Translations under genes and position numbers: made by a program
Origin: Rhodothermales bacterium
GTDB taxonomy: Bacteria > Bacteroidota > Rhodothermia > Rhodothermales > Bin80
DNA length: 64,000 bases
Assembly (NCBI GenBank): GCA_965215475.1
Contig: OZ244061.1
Span: 764,563-828,562 of the forward strand
Reading direction: 5' to 3'
Shown: piece after piece, positions 127 through 64,000 of the stretch
How positions within the stretch are numbered: the stretch's first letter is position 1
Layout of the letters: every line of letters starts with the position of its first letter
Notes under the pieces: model-generated
What the model was told of the DNA's origin: nothing
The model's database searches: none
Seen by the model: only the letters and a program-made list of their open reading frames with translations

Positions 127-2099
127 TTAGCAAGCCTCTATATCATTGTAATCACGATAAAATGCACGGGTTGTGTCTGTATCTTCATCTGAAATAGAAA
201 AGTCTTCATCGCCGAGTGAATTAAGGTTAACATATAGATGGTTCGCATCTAAGCAGTCCATCAACACACGCTTAGCATCATTCAAAGAAAGGTTAACAAA
301 TTCATCTTCGTCAAAAGAATCCATGTTGAAATCATAACGAAGAAAACCCATTTTCTGCATATCGACCTTAATGGACAATAATGTGGAGTGCTTTCTTGCC
401 GATTCAATTTGATCAGCAAAAACTGAGTTGGAAGCCGCGAGTTCGGCATAAACAAATGACCCACCTCCTTTCCATTCAACTTTCTCAGAAACGCCACCTT
501 GTTCGCCTCCAATGACTTTTTTCAAGCGAGTCTTCGTTATCTCCTCAATATAATCCATCTGTTCGATAGCAATCCATTGACGGCCCATCTTGTGTGCAAC
601 AGCAGCCGTAGTACCCGACCCTGCGAAGAAGTCCATCACAATGTCACCTGGATCAGTTGTAATTTCGATAATGCGGCATAAAGTTTCTTCAGGCTTTGGG
701 AACGTAAAAGATTGCTTACCCATAAGTGCTTTAACTTGCAGTGTTCCTCGTTCAGAATTTACCAACTTATCAGCCCAAACAGATCGAACCATTTTACTGG
801 TTTTTCGATACTTTTCAAAAATTCTAAACTGACCATCTCTTTTAGGCCTTGCTAATATTTTATTGATGTTCTCCCTTGATTTTTTCACTCCCCATCGCCA
901 CACAGTTTGAATTTCTTGTGACTTTGCAGGCATTACACGTACCCAGCCATCTATTTCATTAAGGCTTACTTTATGCAAACCATTTTCATCAGAATTATGG
1001 GGATCCACATAAAAAGGATAGACAAGATTTGGGCGATTGCCTTCGTGAAAAGTAGTATTTCTATTCCTCAATTCACGTAGTTCAAAACCACCAAATTCAT
1101 CTGAATAAGGAAATTTTTTAGCAGGATTATTAATCCAATTGAGTATATAACTCTCACTTTTGGCATAACAGAGGATATATTCATGCATATTTGCAATGCC
1201 ACCATAGTCTCTACCTGCAGGATTGTTTACGACAACTACGCATTCAATAAACTTACCGCCCTTCATTACCTCATCCATGAGAACTTTTAAATAGGCAAAT
1301 TCGTTTCTGTCGCAATGAACAAAAATGAAGCCATCTCCAGAGAGCAGTTGTTTGGCTACTTCAAGCCGATTTCGCATAAATGTAAGCCATGTAGAGTGAT
1401 TGAATCGGTCATTGTACCGAAATCCATCATTCCCAGTATTGTAAGGTGGGTCAATGTAAATCAGTTTTACTTTTCCCGCATAACGAAGCTTTAGTGAGTG
1501 AAGGGCTAACAGGTTATTGCCCTTGATCAACAAATTGTCTTCATTACGTATTTTGCCAACTGACAGACGATTTACCCCCCCCCCATTTTTTCTGAAGCAG
1601 CACTCCAACGCTCCCATCCTGTTAACACCTTTGGCTCAAACAGCCTCGTAATGTCATCGGGGGAGAGAGTAGTATTCCAAAACACTTCCTCCCTGCCTCT
1701 ATCTTCCTTGGTCATTCCACCTTCTAGTACGCAGTCTTTGTATGGCCATGTAAGTACTACATTGCGTAAGTGACTCAAAAAATTACCATGCTGATCTACC
1801 AAGCCAATTCGATTCTTGAAAGCAGTATAACTGTCTGGGAGAAAGGTCTTGTTTGAAATAAAATCCCGAAATTTAACCTTGTCGAAAACTAACGTTCCAG
1901 CAACTTCAACAAAAAAATGTGCCTTGATTGCTTCCGACTGTATCAGTAATTCCAGAAGATGCGCATCCATTCTCAAAGCTGATTCAATCACCACATTTTT
2001 TAGAATAGTTCCGTCTGAAATGAACTCTTCTTCGGACGCTAACAATTCAGCCAGATCGTCAAGAAGGTTTTGCCCGTTCAAAGAAAGATCCTCTCCCAT
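127..2099 (-). CDS. mod: Type III restriction-modification DNA methyltransferase (Mod), frameshifted at a G10 tract (putative phase-OFF)
   Basis: ORF 1572..2099 has the Mod N-terminus (DSYTAFKNRIGL, WPYKDCVLEGG). ORF 127..1617 has IYIDPPYNTG and DFFAGSGTT (beta-class m6A MTase). Adding one G at 1575-1584 joins them into 657 aa. Confidence 0.9.
1570..1591 (-). repeat. Homopolymer cassette AAAAAAT-G10-TAAAT in mod
   Basis: C10 at 1575-1584 on + strand. The coding strand reads ATG GGG GGG GGG TAA; G11 would read GTA AAT CGT in frame. Confidence 0.9.
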
Positions 2100-19161: not shown

Positions 19162-22100
19162 TCACTGCACCCGTATCACGTGTCCAGTGTAGACTGAGGA
19201 TTTCTGATCTTCCAGAGAGGTTGCAATCATCCGATACAAGTAGGGACCCGAGGGCAGATCAAGGTCGGTTAGTTCTAGTTCATGGCGCCATCCTGCGCTC
19301 AGTTGTACTGCCGGGATGGCCATCACGCGCCGCCCTGTCAGGTCAAGAACCTCCACCTGCACCTGTGCTGCCCATGGAAGATCAAACACCAGATGCGTGG
19401 ACCGATAAAACGGATTCGGATAATTCGGATACACCCGAAACTCCTGCGGCACCTTTTGGTTGGCTTCGGTCTGTGTCGGCGATAGAACCTCTATGGTAAA
19501 CTTCAAACTATCTTGCGCCCCATTTTGATCGGTGGCCGTGTAGGTCATCGGGACGGGCTGTATCACCTCTGCGGGCATGCCATAGATCGTGCGGGTCTGT
19601 GCATTGTATCTGAGCCCTAACGGAAAATCCAGTAGCGTCAAGGTATATGCAATGGGAGGTACACCGTCTGAGACCTCAGGGAGCACCCATGGCGCAATCG
19701 TCACACCCCTATCATAGGTCCGATCGGCAATGGTGCCAGTAAAAGCCATCTGATAAATCTCCAGACTGAACGTCTGCTCAATGCGCGCTCCCAAGCGATC
19801 TTGTGCGGTGTAGGTATAGGTTACAGCCTCAGCGACTTCTGAGGGCACCCCGCTTAACGTCCGCGTCTGCGTATCAAAGGTGAGCCCGACCGGTAGCTCA
19901 GGTGTCAAGGTATAGCTGTACGGCCCAATCCCCCCGATCGCGGCTGGAAGCACTTGATTGGTGAGTGGAATCTGGACGGGGTACCTCTGGTCGACAACAG
20001 CTTCTGCAAACGTCAAGGACGGAGGCACTTTGACCTCTATGGTAAAGGTCTGCGAAGCCGACTGGGTATTGGCATCGGTCACCGTATAGGTAAAGATGGT
20101 TGGGGCCATCACTTCGGTGGGCGTTCCGCTCAGCGTCCGTGCATCAAACTTCAGACCTTTGGGCACCTCTGGGGTGAGGGTATAGCTGTAGGGGCGTGTT
20201 CCATATCTGGCTTCGGGAAGCTCAAGATCTTTGATGTCTACTCCTACGAGATAGGACTGGTTGGACACCGTCTGGGTAAAGGATAAGCTTGGCACATCGT
20301 TGTCCACGATGGTGAGCGTAAAGACATATGGATTTGCGAGATTATCGCCGGTCAAGGTGATGATGATGGTTTCGTTGGGCTCGTCATCAAGATCATCAAT
20401 GATTGTGATGCGTAGATCGGCCGTGATCGCGTAGTCTACGTCTTGGGTCGCCGTCCCCGAGAGCGTGTAACTCACCGATGGGCGACCGGTCACTTGGACC
20501 TGATAGGTGCCGGCTGTTTCATCAATGCGGGCCGATGCTCTGGTAAATCTGACCTGGGGTTGCGTCGCAGCCTTGGTCACTACATTGGACGGCAGGCTTT
20601 CGCCAACACGGTTGATGGCACTGACCCGGTAGTGACGGTCAGAATGATGATCCGTGTACGTGGTGCTCGTTTGACGCTCACCAAGTGGGTTCCAAGGCGG
20701 CTGCCCATCCGCGGACCACTGGACCTGATAGCCTGTAATGGCCTCGCCCCCGTTATCGGCCGGCGCTTGCCACGACAGAACAACTGGCAGAGTTGTAGTG
20801 GCGGTTAACTCCAGCGGATCACTGGGAATCGCTGGCGTGGCACGATCCACCGTCGTGCCATCAGCCACATTGGAGGGTGGACTGCTTCCCTCGGCGTTGA
20901 TGGCACGGGTCCTGTAATAGCGCGTCGTGCCCGGAGACAGTCCACGATCAATAAACATCGTCAAGGTGGACTCGGAGTCATCTTCAAGATTCGCCCAACT
21001 AGTTCCATCGGCCGACCACTCAACGCGATATCCCGTAATAGCCGCGCCCCCGTTATCGGTCGGAGCGGTCCATGAGACAACAAGAATCGTCCGCCCACTT
21101 GGGGTGACACTCAGTGCAGTCGGCGCATCAGGGGCCATGATGGCTTCTGTAGTCGCATTCGCTGGAGTAGATGCGCTGGTGCTCTCGCCCACCGAGTTAC
21201 TCACATAGACCCGGTAATGCCGCGTGGTAGAAGGATTGAGGCCCGTATCGCTGTAGGTGCGATCCGGGCCCGAATGCGCAGGAATGGCATTTGTCCACGG
21301 AGCATTCCCGTCAGCCGACCACTGAACGCGGTAGCCCGTGATGTCGGCGCCCCCGGTGTTGGTGGGCGCATCCCAAGAGAGAGCAATCGCAGTACGCCCG
21401 TTGGCCGTCGCACTGAGATTTCCAGGGGGACCGGGCCTCGTCGCCGTCACCGCAGCGGTGGTGGCATCGTCGGTCGCAGATGCGCTGGCACTCTCGCCCA
21501 CCGAGTTACTGGCATAGACCCGGTAATGCCGCCTTGTAGATGGATCAAGCCCCGTATCGCTGTAGGTGCGATCCGTGCCCGAATGCGCAGGATCGACATT
21601 TGTCCACAGAGCATTCCCGTCGGCCGACCACTGAACGCGATAGCTACTAATACGTGCACCCCCGTCACTGGTCGGGAGATCCCATTTCAAGTTAATCGTA
21701 GTACGCCCTGACGCGGTGGCGACAAGGTTTTGCGGGGCCCCGGGCCTCACCGCCGCAGCGGTCGTCGCATCATCGGTGTTGGACGGCAAACTCTCCCCCT
21801 GCGCATTGATGGCATACACCCGGTAATGGCGCGTGGCACCGCCCAAAAGCCCCGTATCGCTGTAGGTCGTGCTCGTTGATTCGGTGTCATCCATCACATC
21901 CGCCCAGCCCGCAGTTCCATCCGACGACCACTCAATGTGGTACCCCGTGATGGCCGTGCCCCCAGTGTTGGCTGGCGCCGTCCACGACAGATCAATCGTC
22001 GTTGGCCCATTGGCGGACGCATTCAAACCCGTTGGATCACTGGGAATCGTATTGGTACTGCCATCTACCGTCGTCGCACTCGCTGGAATGGATGCTGTCC

Positions 22101-25100
22101 CCGTGTTTGTCGTATTGATGGCGCTCACCCGGTAATGGCGCGTGGACCCTGCACTAAGGCCGCGATCAATAAAGGTGGTGGCCGTACTTTCGGTGTCATC
22201 TTCGAGATCCGCCCAGTTACTCGTGCCATCGGCCGACCACTCTATCTTGTACCCACTCACCGCACTGCCTCCATTGTTGGACGGCGCCGTCCACGAAAGC
22301 ACAATCAAGGTGCGCCCACTGGCCGTGGCCGTCAAACTGGTTGGATCGCTGGGAACCGTATTCGTGCTGCCATCCACGGTGGTCCCCATCCCGGCGGTAG
22401 ACGCGGCACCTGTATTCACAGAGTTGATCGCACTGATCTGATAGTGCCGCGTGACTCCCGCCGAAAGCCCGCGATGGATATGGGTGGTTTGTGTTGATCG
22501 GGTATTGGTGGCCAGAGGGTTGTAATTGGTGCCTCCATCGGTCGACACATCGATCTTATAGCCGGTAATGGCTTCGCCCCCATTGTCGGCCGGCGCCGTC
22601 CATGAGACGATCAGTATCGTGCGTCCACTTGGGGTGACACTTACTGCAGTCGGCGCATCAGGGGCCATGATCGCTTCGGTGGTGGCACTCGTTGAACTTG
22701 ACGCCGTTGCACTCTCGCCCTGTGAGTTGCTGGCATATACCTGATAATCATAGCGCGTGTTTGGACTTCGCCCCGTATGACTGTAGGTCCGCGTCGTGCC
22801 CATATGCGCAGGATCAACATCACTCCAGCTACTGCCTTGATCGTCCGACCACTGAACGCGGTAGCCCGTGATATCGGCGCCCCCGGTGTTGGTGGGCGCA
22901 TCCCAAGAGAGAGTAATCGCAGTGCGTCCGTTGGCCGTGGCACTGAGATTTCCAGGGGGACTAGGCACGGTCGCCGCCATGGCAGCGGTGGTGGCATCGT
23001 CGGTGTTGGACGGCAAACTCTCCCCCTGCGCATTGATGGCATACACCCGGTAATGGCGCGTGGCACCGCCCAAAAGCCCCGTATCGCTGTAGGTCGTGCT
23101 CGTTGATTCGGTGTCATCTATCACATCCGCCCAGCCCGCAGTTCCATCCGACGACCACTCAATGTGGTACCCCGTGATGGCCGTGCCCCCAGTGTTGGCT
23201 GGCGCCGTCCACGACAGCACAATCGTCGTTGGCCCATTGGCGGACGCATTCAAACCCGTTGGATCACTGGAAATCGTATTGGTACTGCCATCTACCGTCG
23301 TCGCACTCGCTGGAATGGATGCTGTCCCCGTGTTTGTCGTATTGATGGCGCTCACCCGGTAATGGCGCGTGGACCCTGCACTAAGGCCGCGATCAATAAA
23401 GGTGGTGGCCGTACTTTCGGTGTCATCTTCGAGATCCGCCCAGTTACTCGTGCCATCGGCCGACCACTCTATCTTGTACCCACTCACCGCACTGCCTCCA
23501 TTGTTGGACGGCGCCGTCCACGTAAGCACAATCAAGGTGCGCCCACTGGCCGTGGCCGTCAAACTGGTTGGATCGCTGGGAACCGTATTCGTGCTGCCAT
23601 CCACGGTGGTGCCCATCCCGGCGGTAGACGCGGCGCCTGTATTCACAGAGTTGATCGCACTGATCTGATAATGCCGCGTGACTCCCGCCGAAAGCCCGCG
23701 ATGGATATGGGTGGTTTGTGTTGATCGGGTATTGGTGACCAGAGGGTTGTAATTGGTGCCTCCATCGGTCGACACATCGATCTTATAGCCGGTAATGGCT
23801 TCGCCCCCATTGTCGGACGGCGCCGTCCATGAGACGATCAGTATCGTGCGTCCACTTGGGGTGACACTTACTGCAGTCGGCGCATCAGGGGCCATGATCG
23901 CTTCGGTGGTGACACTCGTTGAACTTGACGCCGTTGCACTCTCGCCCTGTGAGTTGCTGGCATATACCTGATAATCATAGCGCGTGTTTGGACTTCGCCC
24001 CGTATGACTGTAGGTCCGCGTCGTGCCCGTATGCGCAGGATCAACATCACTCCAGCTACTGCCTTGATCGTCCGACCACTGAACGCGGTAGCCCGTGATA
24101 TCGGCGCCCCCGGTGTTGGTGGGCGCATCCCAAGAGAGAGTAATCGCAGTGCGTCCGTTGGCCGTGGCACTGAGATTTCCAGGGGGACCAGGCACGGTGT
24201 TCATCCCCGCTGTGACGACATTGGACCAGGTGCCGGTGGTGCCCGCCGAATTGATTGCACCGACCCGGTACTGACGCACGGTGGTGAGCGTTTGACTGGT
24301 ATGGGCGTAGGTCACCCCATCATCCATAGTGTCATCTTCAACATCCGTCCAATTGCTACCCCCGTCCGTGGATTGTTCAATCTCATAACCCGTGATGACA
24401 CTACACTTGTCGCTCACCGCTGGCGCGGTCCACGATAAATTAAAGGTGCTGGTGCCATCACTGGTGGCGGTCAGCCCCGTCGGGGCAGCCGGAACGGCGA
24501 CGGTGCCCGTGGTCGCATAGGCTTCGTCAGACAGGGCACTATCTTCAAACTCATCATCTTCCATATAGACCCGATACCCATAGCAGGTATTGGTATCCAG
24601 ACCCGTATCGGTGATCATGAGGGTGGAAGCACCAACTTGACTATCAAGAGTCCATGAATCTCCGTCATTGTTACTGCGAAATACATAGTAGTTCATCACC
24701 GTTCGTCCACTGGGAAGATCTGTCGGGGCGACCCAGGCTACATCAATGGATGTTCCCGTATTCTTGGTCGCCGTCACCCCGGTGGGGATTCCCGTCCCGC
24801 TACGGGCCACCGCGGTTACCGTGACGACCGCCGACGGGGGGCTCTCAACATCATCCGCATTGACTACTTTGATGCGGTAATAAAACTCTTCCCCCGGCGT
24901 GAGCAGACTACTGACATGGCGCTCGGCCGGAGAATCCGTGTTGTTGGTTGGCTCGGCCAGCACCTCCCAGCTGGTGTTGTCCGTTGACCATTCCAGAATA
25001 TGCTTTTTGAAGGCCGCACCCCCAAGACTGGTCGCTGGAGAGGTATCCCATTGAAGCGTAATGGCATGAAAGGCTGTCGTCGTTACTCGTAGACTGGTCG

Positions 25101-27939
25101 GTGCAGCCGGCACGGTCACCGATGCCTGCAAGACACTGGACGCTGCACCCGCGCCACGTGCATTGATCGCGCGAACCCGGTACCAGCGTGTATCCCCCGC
25201 CGAGAGCCCTGTATGAGAATAGGTGGTCCCCGTCTGACTGTCCACCAACTCGGTAAAGGTCGTTCCGTCTTCAGAGACCTCAATCTTGTAGCCTGTAATC
25301 GCGCTCCCCCAGGTCTGCGTCGGTGCGGTCCAAGACAGTGCAATGCTCGTGGCCGCCGGGGTGGAGGTGAGACTAGTCGGCGCAGCGGGTGCGCCAAAGG
25401 TGAGCGAAGCGGGGATGGACGGATCTCTTAAAACAAAGCCTTGGGTATAAACGCCCACACGATAGCTATAAGTGGTGCCTGCAGTCAAGCCATCACTATC
25501 GGTATATGTCAATGTAGTGGCAGACAATGTGGTGGAAAGTGCTCGCCAGCTGTCTCCGCTATTGGCCGTCCGATACACTTCAAAAAATTGCACTGGATCG
25601 GATGACAAATCCGTTGGGGCCGTCCACGAAACCGTCACCTCCGTCGCCGATGTCTGCGATGCGGTCACCCCCGTAGGAATGCCCGTTGAAGTGAATGCCT
25701 TTGCAGTCACGTTTCGGGCCACAGACGCAGGGCCCGCCCCCGCTGAATTCACCGCGCTCACCCGGTAGTAAAACGTCTCACCGGGCGTCAACAAACGGCT
25801 GTAGTGGTCATATCTTGGTATAAGGCCGGCAGCGACGCCCGTGGCCAACACCTCCCATGTTGAATTATCGGTAGACCATTCAACGGTGTAGCTAGTAATA
25901 GGCGTGCTTCCCGTGCTACTCGGTGGATCTATTCCTACATAGACATATTGATACTGTTGACTACCAATTATTGAAATCGTAGGAGCGCCGGGCGGCTCCC
26001 CGATGGTAATGCTCTGAACTGCGGTCGGTTGGCCTGTGCCCCGTGCATTGATGGCACGGACCCGGTAATGACGCACATCGCCGGCCGAGAGTCCGGTGTG
26101 CGAATACGTAGTCCCCGTCTGACTGGCGACCAGCTCGGTAAAGGTGTCGCCATCGGTAGAGACCTCAATCTGATAGCCGGTGACGGCGCTCCCCCAGGTC
26201 TGCGTCGGGGCGGTCCAAGACAGATCAATGCTGGTGCGCCCTGAGCCAACCGTCGCTGTAAACGAGGTCGGCACGCTGGGCGCACCAACGGTCAGCGAAT
26301 CGGGCGGCGAAAGATCGTACTCAAAGGACGCATCGGTTTGAACGGCCACACGATAGCCGTAGGTATTCCCAACCGTCAACCCGTCATCATCAACATACGA
26401 GGATGCTGTGTGGCTGATACTGCCGTCAAGTTGCTCCCAAAGCTCTCCGCTATTGGCCGTCCGATACACCTGATAGAAGGCAATTCCATCTGTAGTACCA
26501 TCCGCATCCGGCACATCCGTTGGGGCCGTCCACGACACTGTGACTTCACCGGCCGCCGTCTGCAGTGCCCGCACATCAGTGGGCACGCCCGCACCACTGG
26601 CACGAGAAACCGCCACCGCACTAGCAGACGTAGAAGGCGGGCTCGCCCCCGCGGAATTGACCGCACGCACCCGGTAGTAAAACGTCTCGCCTACGGTCAG
26701 CAAACTGCTAAAATGTTCATAGTATCCAGTATTGCCTGCAGCGGGCTGGTCCACAACCTCCCAGTTGGTATCATCGGTAGACCATTCGATGATATGGCTG
26801 GTAATCGGCGGCGTGATCGTAGGTGTCCGATCCCAATTCAGAACGATATTATGAAGCCGGACGCCACCGGCTGTTAATCCCGTTGGCGCGGCGGGCGGGA
26901 GCTGCGTAGTGAAGGCATCGGACCACGCGCCAAAGCCCGCCGAATTCTTTGCCCGCACCTGGTACTGACGGCTCGTCGCAATCGTCTGCCCTGTATGCGC
27001 ATACATCACCGCGTCATCGCCCGTGTCGGCTGCGACATCACTCCACGTATCGCTGCTACTGGCGCGCTCCTGGATCTGATAGCCCGTGATCGCGCTGCAC
27101 TTGTCAGATGCCGGCGCTGTCCAACTCAAATTGAAGGTCGTCCCCGTGCCCGTGGCCGTCAAGCCCGTTGGGGCCGCAGGAGTGGTGACCGTCCCCGTCG
27201 TCGCGTAGGCGGGGTCGGAGAGGTGGCTTTTTCTATAAGATGGCACATAATCCGCGATAACCCGATACCCGTAGCAGGTATTCGCACTCAAGCCCGTGTT
27301 GGTGAATGCTTGATTAGAAGCCCCGATGTTATTCTCTATTATAGTCCACAAATCACCATCATTTGTGGTGCGCAAGAGTTGATAAAATGATACGGATTGA
27401 TTATCTGGAATATCGGTCGCATCCGTCCACGAGACCTCAATGGAGGTGCCATCACTTTGCAGGGTTGCCGTCACCCCAGTGATAACGCCCCATCCACTGC
27501 GTGCCACCGCGGTTGCGGTGACGACATCCGACGGTGGACTCACCTCATCATTGGTATTGACGACCTTAAATCGGTAGTAATAGTCGTTTCCCGGCGTCAG
27601 TAGATTGCTGTAGTGATTAAAACCGCTTGTAAATTGGGCAGTACTCTCCCCCGCCACCGACCAGGTGCTGTTGTCTGAAGACCATTCAAAGATATACTTT
27701 GAAAATCCTGCGCCGCCTAAGGAACCGCTTGTAGCGACAGTAAAATTCAGACTCGTTTGATGAAATGCACTATATGCGACAGTCAGACCGGTGGGCTTAT
27801 CTGGAGGGGCGCTGCTGGGCAGTCTGGTTCGAAGAGACGGATCGGCTACCGCGAAGGTTGTAGATGCGGTTTCGCTTGGATCTACCGAATTCCAAGTTGT
27901 ATGCTCACTGCCGTCCGCAGACGCCACGCCATCCTCCAC
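19162..27939 (-). CDS. Giant secreted surface protein: ~two dozen fibronectin type III domains, Calx-beta-like and Ig-like domains, T9SS C-terminal domain
   Basis: Repeated LSWTAP..GG..ITGY...Y.V.AIN FN3 motifs; DDEPNETIIITL; LP.GL.FD..TLSG.P; NYPNPF...LPSGPY sorting domain. This ORF lacks a signal peptide, which lies out of frame upstream. Confidence 0.93.
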   Translation of the reverse strand: MEDGVASADGSEHTTWNSVDPSETASTTFAVADPSLRTRLPSSAPPDKPTGLTVAYSAFHQTSLNFTVATSGSLGGAGFSKYIFEWSSDNSTWSVAGESTAQFTSGFNHYSNLLTPGNDYYYRFKVVNTNDEVSPPSDVVTATAVARSGWGVITGVTATLQSDGTSIEVSWTDATDIPDNQSVSFYQLLRTTNDGDLWTIIENNIGASNQAFTNTGLSANTCYGYRVIADYVPSYRKSHLSDPAYATTGTVTTPAAPTGLTATGTGTTFNLSWTAPASDKCSAITGYQIQERASSSDTWSDVAADTGDDAVMYAHTGQTIATSRQYQVRAKNSAGFGAWSDAFTTQLPPAAPTGLTAGGVRLHNIVLNWDRTPTITPPITSHIIEWSTDDTNWEVVDQPAAGNTGYYEHFSSLLTVGETFYYRVRAVNSAGASPPSTSASAVAVSRASGAGVPTDVRALQTAAGEVTVSWTAPTDVPDADGTTDGIAFYQVYRTANSGELWEQLDGSISHTASSYVDDDGLTVGNTYGYRVAVQTDASFEYDLSPPDSLTVGAPSVPTSFTATVGSGRTSIDLSWTAPTQTWGSAVTGYQIEVSTDGDTFTELVASQTGTTYSHTGLSAGDVRHYRVRAINARGTGQPTAVQSITIGEPPGAPTISIIGSQQYQYVYVGIDPPSSTGSTPITSYTVEWSTDNSTWEVLATGVAAGLIPRYDHYSRLLTPGETFYYRVSAVNSAGAGPASVARNVTAKAFTSTGIPTGVTASQTSATEVTVSWTAPTDLSSDPVQFFEVYRTANSGDSWRALSTTLSATTLTYTDSDGLTAGTTYSYRVGVYTQGFVLRDPSIPASLTFGAPAAPTSLTSTPAATSIALSWTAPTQTWGSAITGYKIEVSEDGTTFTELVDSQTGTTYSHTGLSAGDTRWYRVRAINARGAGAASSVLQASVTVPAAPTSLRVTTTAFHAITLQWDTSPATSLGGAAFKKHILEWSTDNTSWEVLAEPTNNTDSPAERHVSSLLTPGEEFYYRIKVVNADDVESPPSAVVTVTAVARSGTGIPTGVTATKNTGTSIDVAWVAPTDLPSGRTVMNYYVFRSNNDGDSWTLDSQVGASTLMITDTGLDTNTCYGYRVYMEDDEFEDSALSDEAYATTGTVAVPAAPTGLTATSDGTSTFNLSWTAPAVSDKCSVITGYEIEQSTDGGSNWTDVEDDTMDDGVTYAHTSQTLTTVRQYRVGAINSAGTTGTWSNVVTAGMNTVPGPPGNLSATANGRTAITLSWDAPTNTGGADITGYRVQWSDDQGSSWSDVDPAHTGTTRTYSHTGRSPNTRYDYQVYASNSQGESATASSSTSVTTEAIMAPDAPTAVSVTPSGRTILIVSWTAPSDNGGEAITGYKIDVSTDGGTNYNPLVTNTRSTQTTHIHRGLSAGVTRHYQISAINSVNTGAASTAGMGTTVDGSTNTVPSDPTSLTATASGRTLIVLTWTAPSNNGGSAVSGYKIEWSADGTSNWADLEDDTESTATTFIDRGLSAGSTRHYRVSAINTTNTGTASIPASATTVDGSTNTISSDPTGLNASANGPTTIVLSWTAPANTGGTAITGYHIEWSSDGTAGWADVIDDTESTSTTYSDTGLLGGATRHYRVYAINAQGESLPSNTDDATTAAMAATVPSPPGNLSATANGRTAITLSWDAPTNTGGADITGYRVQWSDDQGSSWSDVDPAHMGTTRTYSHTGRSPNTRYDYQVYASNSQGESATASSSTSATTEAIMAPDAPTAVSVTPSGRTILIVSWTAPADNGGEAITGYKIDVSTDGGTNYNPLATNTRSTQTTHIHRGLSAGVTRHYQISAINSVNTGAASTAGMGTTVDGSTNTVPSDPTSLTATASGRTLIVLSWTAPSNNGGSAVSGYKIEWSADGTSNWADLEDDTESTATTFIDRGLSAGSTRHYRVSAINTTNTGTASIPASATTVDGSTNTIPSDPTGLNASANGPTTIDLSWTAPANTGGTAITGYHIEWSSDGTAGWADVMDDTESTSTTYSDTGLLGGATRHYRVYAINAQGESLPSNTDDATTAAAVRPGAPQNLVATASGRTTINLKWDLPTSDGGARISSYRVQWSADGNALWTNVDPAHSGTDRTYSDTGLDPSTRRHYRVYASNSVGESASASATDDATTAAVTATRPGPPGNLSATANGRTAIALSWDAPTNTGGADITGYRVQWSADGNAPWTNAIPAHSGPDRTYSDTGLNPSTTRHYRVYVSNSVGESTSASTPANATTEAIMAPDAPTALSVTPSGRTILVVSWTAPTDNGGAAITGYRVEWSADGTSWANLEDDSESTLTMFIDRGLSPGTTRYYRTRAINAEGSSPPSNVADGTTVDRATPAIPSDPLELTATTTLPVVLSWQAPADNGGEAITGYQVQWSADGQPPWNPLGERQTSTTYTDHHSDRHYRVSAINRVGESLPSNVVTKAATQPQVRFTRASARIDETAGTYQVQVTGRPSVSYTLSGTATQDVDYAITADLRITIIDDLDDEPNETIIITLTGDNLANPYVFTLTIVDNDVPSLSFTQTVSNQSYLVGVDIKDLELPEARYGTRPYSYTLTPEVPKGLKFDARTLSGTPTEVMAPTIFTYTVTDANTQSASQTFTIEVKVPPSLTFAEAVVDQRYPVQIPLTNQVLPAAIGGIGPYSYTLTPELPVGLTFDTQTRTLSGVPSEVAEAVTYTYTAQDRLGARIEQTFSLEIYQMAFTGTIADRTYDRGVTIAPWVLPEVSDGVPPIAYTLTLLDFPLGLRYNAQTRTIYGMPAEVIQPVPMTYTATDQNGAQDSLKFTIEVLSPTQTEANQKVPQEFRVYPNYPNPFYRSTHLVFDLPWAAQVQVEVLDLTGRRVMAIPAVQLSAGWRHELELTDLDLPSGPYLYRMIATSLEDQKSSVYTGHVIRVQ
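21760..24198. repeat. Near-identical internal tandem duplication, 1227-bp period (409 aa, 4 FN3 domains)
   Basis: cggtgttggacggc at 21774 and 23001; antisense ORFs in the track repeat at a 1227-bp offset; ends approximate. Confidence 0.9.
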
Positions 27940-27952
27940 CGTGGCGGGTTGT

Positions 27953-28117
27953 TTATTTAAAAAATGGGGGGGGGGGGGGGGGTGAATTCAACTCCACAGC
28001 CTCCCCCATCTGCGCAGAGGTCGTCTCTACACCAAACAGGACCACACACCACAAAATCACATGCATCATGCAGGATCGGAAAAGGGCACGCGTGCCCGCA
28101 AATTCGTTAGGTCTCAT
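27953..28117 (-). CDS. Out-of-frame signal-peptide segment of the giant FN3 gene
   Basis: MRPNEFAGTRALFRSCMMHVILWCVVLFGVETTSAQMGEAVELNSPPPPPPFFK*. With C16 instead of C17 it reads PPPPPHFLNKQPATVEDG into the 2925-aa ORF. Confidence 0.85.
   Translation of the reverse strand: MRPNEFAGTRALFRSCMMHVILWCVVLFGVETTSAQMGEAVELNSPPPPPPFFK
27959..27987 (-). repeat. Homopolymer cassette ATTCA-C17-ATTTTTT (out of frame)
   Basis: G17 at 27966-27982 on + strand. Confidence 0.9.
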
Positions 28118-28118
28118 C

Positions 28119-28139
28119 AAAAAATGGGGGGGGGTGAAT
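28119..28139 (-). repeat. Homopolymer cassette ATTCA-C9-ATTTTTT at the extreme 5' end of the FN3 gene
   Basis: G9 at 28126-28134. ATG at 28146 reads MFHSPPPIF*; C10 would read MFHSPPPHFLMRPNE into the signal peptide. Confidence 0.85.
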
Positions 28140-28548
28140 GGAACATCGTTCAGGGTAAGTCAAGTATTCACAAGGAAAAATATGGTTTGTTCAGACAAAT
28201 ACAGACAAAGATAAAAAAAAGATCCAAGTTCTTGTAAATAGCCTAACATCAGATGAAATTCAGCGCAGCGGTATCATTCAACCAGAACTGTCCTACCATA
28301 AGATCCTGTATCTTGTAAGGGACTGCGAACAAAGCATACGTTAAGTTCAACCCATAATATTCACGACGATTGAGTTTTAAGTTATTTTCACCAAACTGGA
28401 GCTTTTTTTCTGAGGTCCTGCTATACTGTTTCTACGCCCATTCCAGTGGGGGGGCCACGGATAGAACGTACGGTTTTTATCCTGAGATGTATGGAGTGGG
28501 TGCCGTTCTTTTTTCAGAAATTTATTTCCCCCATTTGGGGAACCCTTT

Positions 28549-30043
28549 ATGAAGCTCAAACCACCGCCAAGGTTCCACGTAAAGCCGACCTTCCACCGCT
28601 CCTTAGAGGTCAAGACACAGAACATCCCACGACCTCCGATGTGGGATCGATTGTGATGCGCTCCATGGTTGACAAGATGGGAATGGTTCCTTTTCTGGTC
28701 TGTACGATCCTCGGGATCCGAATCGGATCACACATTCGTGGGTCCAGTTGCGGATCCAATGTATCCTGATGTTGGCTCAAGGCTGGGGGATGCTCCAGTC
28801 CAACCGCGTCATGGATGATCCAGCTCTGAAGGCATCCTGCCAGATCAAGCGAGGCGGTACGGTCACCGGCCCCGATGTTCAATTGGCATCGCAACCAACG
28901 AGGTCGAGACGGCGATCGCTTCTCCGTACCGCGAAGAATTACGCTCGCCTCATTTGAAGCTCAGACGGGAACATATGTGGGTGCGTCATGGTGCACAGCA
29001 TCAGGCGATTGCCCTCCTTGCTACGGATTCCATGGCCGTGGAAGTTCACGGCCATCAACAGGGAGCGAAGGACCATGGACCCGCTAAGCCGAATGGATTT
29101 CTTCCCCAGATACTCCAGCGGGGAGACGGGGGAGGTCCTTGGAGCATGATTACGTCCAGGCACGGATCCAGAACCCAAAGGCTTCCCCCACTTCATGGTT
29201 ACGATCGCCTTGAAGGTGAAACAACGCATTGCAGATCAAGGGATGGTTTGGATGCGGGCTTGAATGGGGAGCAGACCTGTGCACCCTTGGAATTGGATGG
29301 ACTCGATCATGCGTGGGACCCGCAATACGCGATGGAGTCAGATGGCAGCCCCCGATCTCCATGATTGCAGAGAAGATACGGTCCGATCCATGGAACTCGT
29401 GTATCACGCCGATAAATGGAGCCTCCCATGTCGGGTCCTTTTCGTGATCCGACCGCGCCCATAAGAGCTTTTCGATGGATCGTACTTTTTCGTGACTAGT
29501 CTTGATTCGTCCGAGGAGGAGATCGCCAAGATGGATCGTCAACGCGGGAAAGCAGCGTTGCCTCAGGGGGAGAGGAAAGCGGCGTGTACCTGTGCCTTTC
29601 CGTCTTCACCACGCAAGAAGAGCCAGGATCGGGTTCCCGTGATCGAGGAGAGCGTTCCAGGAGACGATGATGAAGTAGGCATGGAGAATGCGGTGCGGTT
29701 CCTGCTCGACATGCAGGTCAATCCGCTCATGCATCTTGGTCGATGCACCCTAGCAGAAACCAGAAGCGATGGAAACATCTACGCAGCAGGCATCTGCATC
29801 CGGGAACGACACGCCATGGTGTTCCCCGGACGTAGAGAGAGCCACCGAAGTCTGCACCTTCGCCGAGGAACCCCAGACCACGGAGGAGGAACCTCACATG
29901 CATATTCGCACCTTCAGAGAACAAGTCCTGAACGTCGGGGCGGTGATGATGGGCGTTACCTCCGATTCCGCAGTGCTCCATCTGCTATAGAAGCCTGGAA
30001 GCGGCGCTGGGAACACTTCGGAACGTTGGACTGGCACGAGTGA
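28549..30043 (+). pseudogene. Degraded IS1380-family transposase
   Basis: Fragments across frames: FHRSLEV..TSDVG, LMLAQGW..DDPAL..LASQPT, EVHGHQQG, RQRGKA, FREQVLNV. Confidence 0.75.
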
Positions 30044-63796: not shown

Positions 63797-64000
63797 ATGT
63801 TCATTTCAACCGAAGTACTTATGTCCATTCTCAGTTTTCTTCTATTGCTTTCTGTGGTTCCGAACTCGGCAAGTGACTTGTTTGCAACCTCTTCCATTTT
63901 ACCCCCCCCCCATTTTTCGGGTGATCGCGCCATAGGGACGCTCCCTGATGGATTTTCCGAACTTGAGTCTGCCAAGAAGACGTCTCCCTTAGGGGGCGGA
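63797..64000 (+). CDS. 5' end of a secreted protein with an in-frame C10 cassette after its signal peptide (runs off the window)
   Basis: MFISTEVLMSILSFLLLLSVVPNSASDLFATSSILPPPHFSGDRAIG..., 68 codons open to the edge; not in the ORF track. Confidence 0.65.
   Translation, partial: MFISTEVLMSILSFLLLLSVVPNSASDLFATSSILPPPHFSGDRAIGTLPDGFSELESAKKTSPLGGG
63896..63917 (+). repeat. Homopolymer cassette ATTTTA-C10-ATTTTT (in frame)
   Basis: C10 at 63902-63911. Confidence 0.9.

Follow-up and report, generated by a model that had tools for sequence, protein, structure and literature searches.

Two poly-C tracts in series around the signal peptide of a giant, putatively phase-variable surface-protein gene in a Rhodothermales bacterium

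A giant gene on the minus strand of a Rhodothermales genome is preceded by a signal peptide that lies between two poly-C tracts, the second of which puts it out of frame with the rest of the protein. The gene lies in a 64,000-nucleotide stretch (hereafter the window; GenBank assembly GCA_965215475.1, contig OZ244061.1, positions 764,563 to 828,562). We consider it likely that this locus is a 5′ regulatory segment, that its gene belongs to a large family encoding giant FN3 surface proteins secreted by the type IX secretion system (T9SS), and that two slipped-strand poly-C tracts in series set its expression. We have high confidence that the downstream tract is a frameshift ON/OFF switch, OFF in this assembly, and moderate confidence that the upstream tract is a three-state gate delivering ribosomes to the signal-peptide start.

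A signal peptide between two poly-C tracts

The features of the region, in order of transcription, are:

28144..28146, minus strand: upstream ATG, in the context GAACGATG, with A at −3
28117..28146, minus strand: short 5′ ORF of 9 codons in the C9 state (MFHSPPPIF plus TGA), containing the C9 tract
28126..28134, minus strand: upstream poly-C tract, C9, preceded by ATTCA
28119..28125, minus strand: ATTTTTT, 3′ flank of the upstream tract, from the sequence
28013..28117, minus strand: signal peptide, 35 aa from ATG 28117, with three Arg in the n-region, h-region VILWCVVLFGV and c-region TSA/Q
28080..28097, minus strand: small GC hairpin, GGGCA-CGCG-TGCCC then TTTT (5-bp stem, T4), within the n-region coding sequence of the signal peptide and paired in the RNA fold
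27953..28117, minus strand: leader ORF as assembled, 54 aa plus TAA, ending ..NSPPPPPPFFK* just past C17
27966..27982, minus strand: downstream poly-C tract, C17 as assembled, with ATTCA at its 5′ side, between signal peptide and mature protein, out of frame in this assembly
27959..27965, minus strand: ATTTTTT, 3′ flank of the downstream tract, from the sequence
19162..27987, minus strand: giant open frame, 2,941 codons plus stop (called by the ORF finder from GTG 27939, 19162..27939, 2925 aa)
19225..19422, minus strand: T9SS type A C-terminal sorting domain (TIGR04183; G000:C1:783787-783984), 24.6 bits against a cut-off of 23

The first-pass annotation had described a hidden signal peptide between C9 and C17 tracts with identical ATTCA and ATTTTTT flanks, a description borne out in every element and position. 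The upstream copy, ATTCA-C9-ATTTTTT, stands four codons after ATG 28146, and its short ORF closes in a TGATG, in which the TGA (28119-28117) shares bases with ATG 28117-28115. The ORF from ATG 28117 encodes MRPNEFAGTRALFRSCMMHVILWCVVLFGVETTSA/QMGEAVELNS, and the signal peptide contains two further ATGs (28069 and 28066). Downstream, ATTTTTT is followed by AAATAA, with the stop TAA at 27955-27953. The lengths proposed for the repaired gene are also arithmetically correct: with one C less in C17 the protein from ATG 28117 has 2984 aa [(28117-19162+1-1)/3-1], and when the upstream tract additionally gains one C the protein from ATG 28146 has 2994 aa. The motif ATTCACCCCCCCC has two exact matches in the window and three with at most one mismatch (0.10 expected; 0 of 100 shuffles reach three), and C8 words have 18 matches in the window against 2.4 expected, so that chance does not account for the flanked tracts. 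The context GAACGATG precedes the upstream tract at four loci of this genome. The GC hairpin was not flagged by a terminator scan and is absent from other leader types.

That the called protein lacks a leader was likewise upheld. At its annotated N-terminus no hydrophobic stretch is present: the highest Kyte-Doolittle mean over 11 residues is 0.81, as against 2.99 for VILWCVVLFGV in the upstream leader. The analysis supports a genuine signal peptide that is part of the giant gene; it is homologous to the leaders of two database proteins, P0124 and P0127. It is not in frame with the giant frame in this assembly and is in frame in P0124, P0127, and P0129. By the −3/−1 rule and alignment with the P0127 leader (..GVASA/QTG), cleavage is predicted at TSA/Q.

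The giant frame contains 23 FN3 stretches together with F5/8-type C, He_PIG, and Ig-like domains. Its TIGR04183 match is borderline, reaching only 20 bits when the whole protein is searched. T9SS machinery is present in the genome (the translocon SprA at 1682 bits), as are 59 matches to T9SS C-terminal domains, among them the C-termini of the window gene and of its paralogues A, C, and D. Two plus-strand shadow ORFs of equal length (21937..22497 and 23164..23724) lie 1,227 bp apart within the gene, a spacing that indicates near-identical internal repeats (window 21937-23724).

Tract lengths among paralogues and relatives

The genome (G000) is a single contig of 3.71 Mb with 47.4% G+C, in which three loci, A, B (the window gene), and C, share the leader cassette. 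The copies are identical except for two bases before the first tract and for the tract lengths themselves (upstream/downstream 9/11 in A, 9/17 in B, and 15/9 in C); the 143-nt inter-tract segment and the next 46 nt are the same in all three, and divergence lies outside the cassette. A fourth locus, D (G000 2648519), carries C16 and C10 in a leader of another sequence. Stop-free frames of 3,795, 2,941, 3,856, and 2,825 codons follow in A, B, C, and D, respectively. At the downstream tract none of the three cassette copies is in frame, and across the two-tract loci of this genome and of a sister species (G020) that tract is in frame at 1/9. These states are compatible with chance, with an OFF state favored in culture, or with decay.

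The arrangement recurs in the genus. In the sister species G020, five giant genes have leaders with two tracts and different signal peptides, and near-identical copies differ in tract length (C10/C16 in L041 versus C10/C14 in L042; C15/C9 in L020 versus C16/C10 in L043). Homologous genes in G023 and G014 have the downstream tract only. The N-terminal 159 aa are matched in 8/24 genomes of the genus. Searched against genome contigs, the same 159 aa gave 242 pattern matches and 0 confirmed. Counts of the pattern C9ATTTTT are 37 in this genome, 48 in G020, and 50 in G008; it is present in 18 of the 23 remaining species of the genus, with as many as 50 per genome, and in 1/17 genomes of other genera, and a reversed-pattern control gives counts of 0 to 1.

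Among database proteins, P0124 (3884 aa; from a sibling assembly of 3,709,413 bp) starts MSHLPPHFLMRPNEF...SAQMGEAVELNSPPPPHFLDKPATVEDG, its first residue corresponding to ATG 28146. Its N-terminus MSHLPPHFLMRPNEFAGARALFRTCMMHVILWCVVLFGVETTSAQMGEAVELNSPPPPHFLDKPATVEDG is read from the upstream ATG with both tracts in frame; it is a gene call, with C7 and C13 implied from the protein sequence. The doubly in-frame reading predicted in the first-pass annotation thus exists naturally, and both tracts can be read as codons. The same annotation had named homologues starting without a leader as grounds for doubt; P0124, P0127, and P0129 are all in frame with one. P0123 represents the same region as P0124 through an alternative-frame call across a C9 tract, and P0129 is the orthologue of the window protein body behind a different signal peptide. 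In the homologues P0003, P0005, P0006, P0013, and P0017 (protein database) the leader is followed by Pn-H-F-L.

Contigs from three public sequencing runs (X2, X7, and X10) contain a P0124-type locus as C7/C11, a reading based on 6 letters absent from the long tract, an alignment ending after 7 G, and loose ends. These data are assembled contigs that break at the tracts. The loose ends correspond to flanking sequence of locus A on the upstream side and of locus C on the downstream side. Over paralogues and assemblies, the observed lengths are 7, 9, 9, and 15 for the upstream tract and 9, 9, 11, 11, 13, and 17 for the downstream tract. Signal-peptide cassettes look exchangeable, judging from the leader swap in P0129 and from the X2, X7, and X10 contigs, which join the A upstream flank to the C body. 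Excision of the signal-peptide cassette by recombination between its identical flanks was also considered and set aside, as none of the contigs compared shows the joined form.

A comparison of the cassette DNA with 40 relatives found the cassette in this genome only, with just the poly-C and T-run part matched elsewhere, and an exact cassette 42-mer had 0 matches in metagenome contigs and 0 in genome contigs, collections from which its own genome is possibly absent. The 50-aa leader peptide matched none of the longer proteins in the range 89-2000 aa, which places the giants outside it; residues 1-75 of P0124 matched none among proteins of 2136-6797 aa, where the cluster representatives are without the leader.

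Genome-wide, there are 86 C/G runs of at least 9, with a bimodal length distribution that A/T runs do not show. The 3′ flank ATTTTT follows 37/86 of these tracts as against 2/1113 runs of C6-C8. Directly before frames of at least 1000 codons there are 22 tracts of at least 9, of which 14 have no in-frame upstream ATG and 8 have one, about the one-third that random phases predict. The single-tract genes that we inspected encode a signal peptide, a linker, Pn, and then H-F-S/L; those at G000 290023, 828464, 1835607, and 2445584 are in frame, and those at 486828, 1467954, and 3326175 are out of frame. The one at 828464 falls in the window (63902-63911), where an in-frame C10 in a giant gene (a frame of about 1,480 codons leaving the window) reads MSILSFLLLLSVVPNSASDLFATSSILPPPHFSGDR, a single-tract version of the design.

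Several other tracts deserve mention in their own right. The ATTTTT motif is tied to the C strand, standing at the 3′ side in 37/86 tracts, and its mirror AAAAAT stands at the 5′ side in none. Tracts with this flank are also found in a lipoprotein family (ATGAAATTG-Cn-ATTTTTCTAGCG) and in a mod gene, where the motif is on the strand opposite the coding one, so common ancestry of the giant-protein N-termini cannot account for all of them. Very long C runs are found at G000 865216 (C29), 2695302 (C27), and 3326175 (C23). A unit ending TAAATGGTAGAGAGT is present in five copies, and a C run of 10-29 follows every copy, perhaps marking where a repeated element ends. At window 1575-1584, a Type III restriction-modification methyltransferase gene is divided by a G10/C10 tract (minus-strand ORFs 1572..2099 and 127..1617) into an N-terminal 175-aa ORF with PF12564 and a 496-aa ORF with PF01555, which makes it a candidate phase-variable mod gene of the phasevarion type. 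Slightly beyond the window, at G000 763974 and 2.1 kb from this tract, a C12 tract has 15-nt flanks identical to those of the first.

Readings of the two tracts

The downstream tract, just past the signal-peptidase site, would determine whether the 2,941-codon cargo is read in the frame of the Sec signal peptide. The ON phase is predicted at a tract length of 1 mod 3, read Pn-H-F-L and continuing N-K, as in P0003, P0005, P0006, P0013, P0017, P0124, P0127, and P0129. With C17 out of frame, leader translation would end after 54 residues and the cargo would be made without an export signal. T9SS cargo first crosses the inner membrane by the Sec route, so cargo without a leader would be useless. 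The region has the marks of a contingency locus: C9 and C17 both lie in the 5′ coding region, where a single-base change alters the frame, and tract length is polymorphic between constant flanks, both among cassettes A, B, and C and at the P0124-type locus (C7/C13 versus C7/C11, and C9 in P0123). Switching within populations would presumably be reversible.

For the upstream tract, the length of the short ORF from ATG 28146 would give three outcomes. Computed for loci A, B, and C, a length of 0 mod 3, the present state, makes the stop overlap the signal-peptide ATG, and the resulting TGATG probably permits termination-reinitiation; 1 mod 3 would fuse the upstream ATG to the signal peptide; and at 2 mod 3 the frame runs past the signal-peptide ATG to a stop 8 nt on, so that ribosomes would overshoot that start, probably unfavorably. 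The nine two-tract loci comprise 6 overlapping, 1 fused, 1 overshooting, and 1 stopping early, a count that overstates its support because gene conversion could copy tract phases and the paralogues are not independent. The overlap takes the form TGATG in A, B, and C and ATGA in L041, L042, and L048 of G020. At locus D and at these three G020 loci the upstream ATG cannot be fused to the signal peptide in any phase; one phase ends an upstream ORF of 36-50 codons exactly on the signal-peptide ATG, and 3/4 are in that phase. Locus D would reach the overlap at 0 mod 3, and L041 and L048 need different phases for it (1 and 2 mod 3), each being in the phase required. An overlap phase thus exists in three unrelated leader designs.

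Two earlier proposals about this tract fared differently. A strict AND gate needing a change from C9 to C10 is not favored, since the C9 state, with its stop/start overlap, is probably permissive already and the signal peptide contains ATGs of its own. Re-initiation at TGATG gains comparative support from the overlap phase in two unrelated leader types; translation of the upstream ORF and its coupling to the signal-peptide start are what we infer from these sequences.

The chief alternative, which we regard as rather unlikely, is that the upstream tract acts on transcription (promoter, transcription start, or 5′ UTR) or is a neutral copy of Cn-ATTTTTT, with the signal-peptide ATG initiating alone and only the downstream tract switching. 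The signal peptide's own ATGs count for it, as they may make the upstream tract irrelevant to expression, and the G023 and G014 homologues manage with one tract. Promoter-tract rheostats are known from Bordetella fim and meningococcal porA/opc. This alternative has more difficulty with the ATG found 2-6 codons 5′ of the upstream tract in 9/9 two-tract loci, in 7 distinct sequence contexts, with the natural fused allele P0124, and with an exact stop/start overlap being reachable in three unrelated leaders with upstream ORFs of up to 50 codons; it is helped by the upstream ORFs of locus D and L020, which are in a non-permissive phase. Promoter evidence points both ways. A sigma-70-like scan of 27900-28700 placed 0 promoters, although the sigma-70 consensus may not be this lineage's, and a scan at L020 also found 0. 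At L043, the 3′ end of a TTGACC-18-TATTAT match is 12 nt from the upstream ATG, so that transcripts from it would include this codon; the evidence is weak, with two matches found against 1.1 expected.

Initiation in this genome is congenial to the translational gate. SD-like motifs at −18..−4 precede 155/1663 ORFs as against 251/1663 in a control window. Bacteroidetes are described as lacking SD sequences and favoring A at −3 (PMC6847099). This genome resembles them, with SD-like motifs not enriched before starts and A at −3 of ATG 28146, and where no Shine-Dalgarno sites are used, 5′-proximal initiation and coupling become plausible. Polyproline slows ribosomes, and in-frame tracts encode polyproline, so tract length may also tune the rate. 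Putting these elements together, we entertain a wider scheme, as a tentative possibility. Cn-ATTTTT might be a portable switch module copied into many genes of the genus, two copies of which would form a two-input translational gate in the giant-protein leaders, one that suits a bacterium without Shine-Dalgarno sites. Ribosomes would enter at the 5′-proximal AUG through a length-variable polyproline mini-ORF and be delivered to the signal-peptide start, by overlap or fusion, only in the right phase; the second tract would couple the signal peptide to the cargo, and the cassette would be exchanged among paralogues by recombination.

Recoding is improbable and would be compatible with the switch-and-gate explanation: RNA-polymerase slippage on C17, or ribosomal slippage on T6, would give some in-frame product at any DNA length, and the DNA state would tune expression rather than shut it off. 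Long homopolymers promote transcriptional slippage, and every tract is followed by a T5-T6 run. Natural alleles are nevertheless in frame at the DNA level, and no structured RNA element was found, the leader RNA folding no better than shuffles (z −0.56) and an Rfam search giving no match better than E 0.7. The frame correction at the downstream tract, moreover, differs between paralogues (2 mod 3 in A and B, 0 mod 3 in C), so no single programmed shift fits all, and programmed frameshifting on the T6 run was rejected because A, B, and C require different shifts.

A homopolymer miscount in the assembly, leaving the gene intact (e.g., C16) and nothing variable, is very unlikely. Long homopolymers are error-prone and the single-contig assembly is of unstated technology. 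Lengths at homologous sites nevertheless range from 7 to 17 across paralogues, the sibling assembly, another contig, and three short-read-derived contig sets, for which single-base miscounts are insufficient. Coding runs also tend to keep the frame rather than change it (C/G6, 419 vs. 19; C/G7, 55 vs. 2; C/G8, 8 vs. 0) in a test that needs 120 codons on each side and is informative for runs of 6-8 only, and the excess of C/G runs of at least 9 is bimodal and tied to one flank motif. Decay of a pseudogene, with the frameshift a dead end, is highly improbable: three of three cassette copies are out of frame here, yet 2,941 codons are free of stops, the A, C, and D frames (3,795, 3,856, and 2,825 codons) are open as well, the C-terminal sorting domain is kept, and relatives have in-frame alleles.

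Known systems and significance

Contingency tracts near export signals, at the 5′ ends of genes for surface or secreted proteins, have precedents. Gonococcal pilC has a poly-G in its signal-peptide region, and Gardnerella nanH3 reportedly has a poly-C contingency tract at its 5′ end. In Listeria, a poly(A) contingency tract lies at the 5′ end of inlA (PMC2831843). The giant genes are like these three in that a slippage run near the signal peptide sets the frame of export signal and mature protein and differs in length between strains. They differ in having two tracts in series around the signal peptide; in the great length of the tracts (C17 at this locus, C29 elsewhere in the genome) and their fixed ATTTTT flank; and in the 22 genes with frames of at least 1000 codons, in a T9SS-bearing organism that is not known to be pathogenic.

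Control by repeats at two levels is known from Helicobacter pylori sabA (promoter T-tract and 5′ CT repeats) and meningococcal porA (promoter poly-G and coding poly-A). As there, one tract would serve as the dimmer and the other as the on/off switch for a single gene. In sabA and porA the first tract belongs to the promoter, whereas the upstream tract here comes after an ATG and is readable as codons. Neisseria meningitidis oatC has two homopolymeric tracts inside one ORF (PMC2413038). The two genes share two independent slippage tracts, either able to switch; both oatC tracts lie within one ORF, whereas here one belongs to a short 5′ ORF, or to an N-terminal extension, and the other separates signal peptide from cargo. 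In Streptococcus gallolyticus pil1 the repeat is in a leader peptide (PMC3894217). The likeness is a repeat tract in a short upstream ORF that sets the distance ribosomes read and hence expression of a downstream surface structure; the differences are that here there is no convincing terminator and the repeat is a homopolymer encoding polyproline. The conserved stop/start overlap suggests that the coupling would be translational rather than by attenuation.

A single on/off tract near a signal peptide is already well known; the doubling around an export signal is the new part, and it recurs in a gene family and a genus. Our literature search returned no paper joining homopolymeric tracts, phase variation, and type IX secretion, none linking this lineage to phase variation, and, judged from the titles listed, none on phase variation via translational coupling. 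Repeat-driven phase variation is known mostly from host-adapted pathogens. For annotation, the consequence is that such genes are routinely predicted in pieces or with the signal peptide missing (P0002, P0004, and P0123). One genus of T9SS-bearing bacteria has dozens of tracts per genome, concentrated at the starts of giant surface-protein genes, which would mean stochastic surface variation on the scale of Campylobacter or Neisseria in a lineage for which we found no such description. The double tract is a testable model for how two independent mutational switches can be combined on one gene, and it bears on how starts are chosen without Shine-Dalgarno sites.
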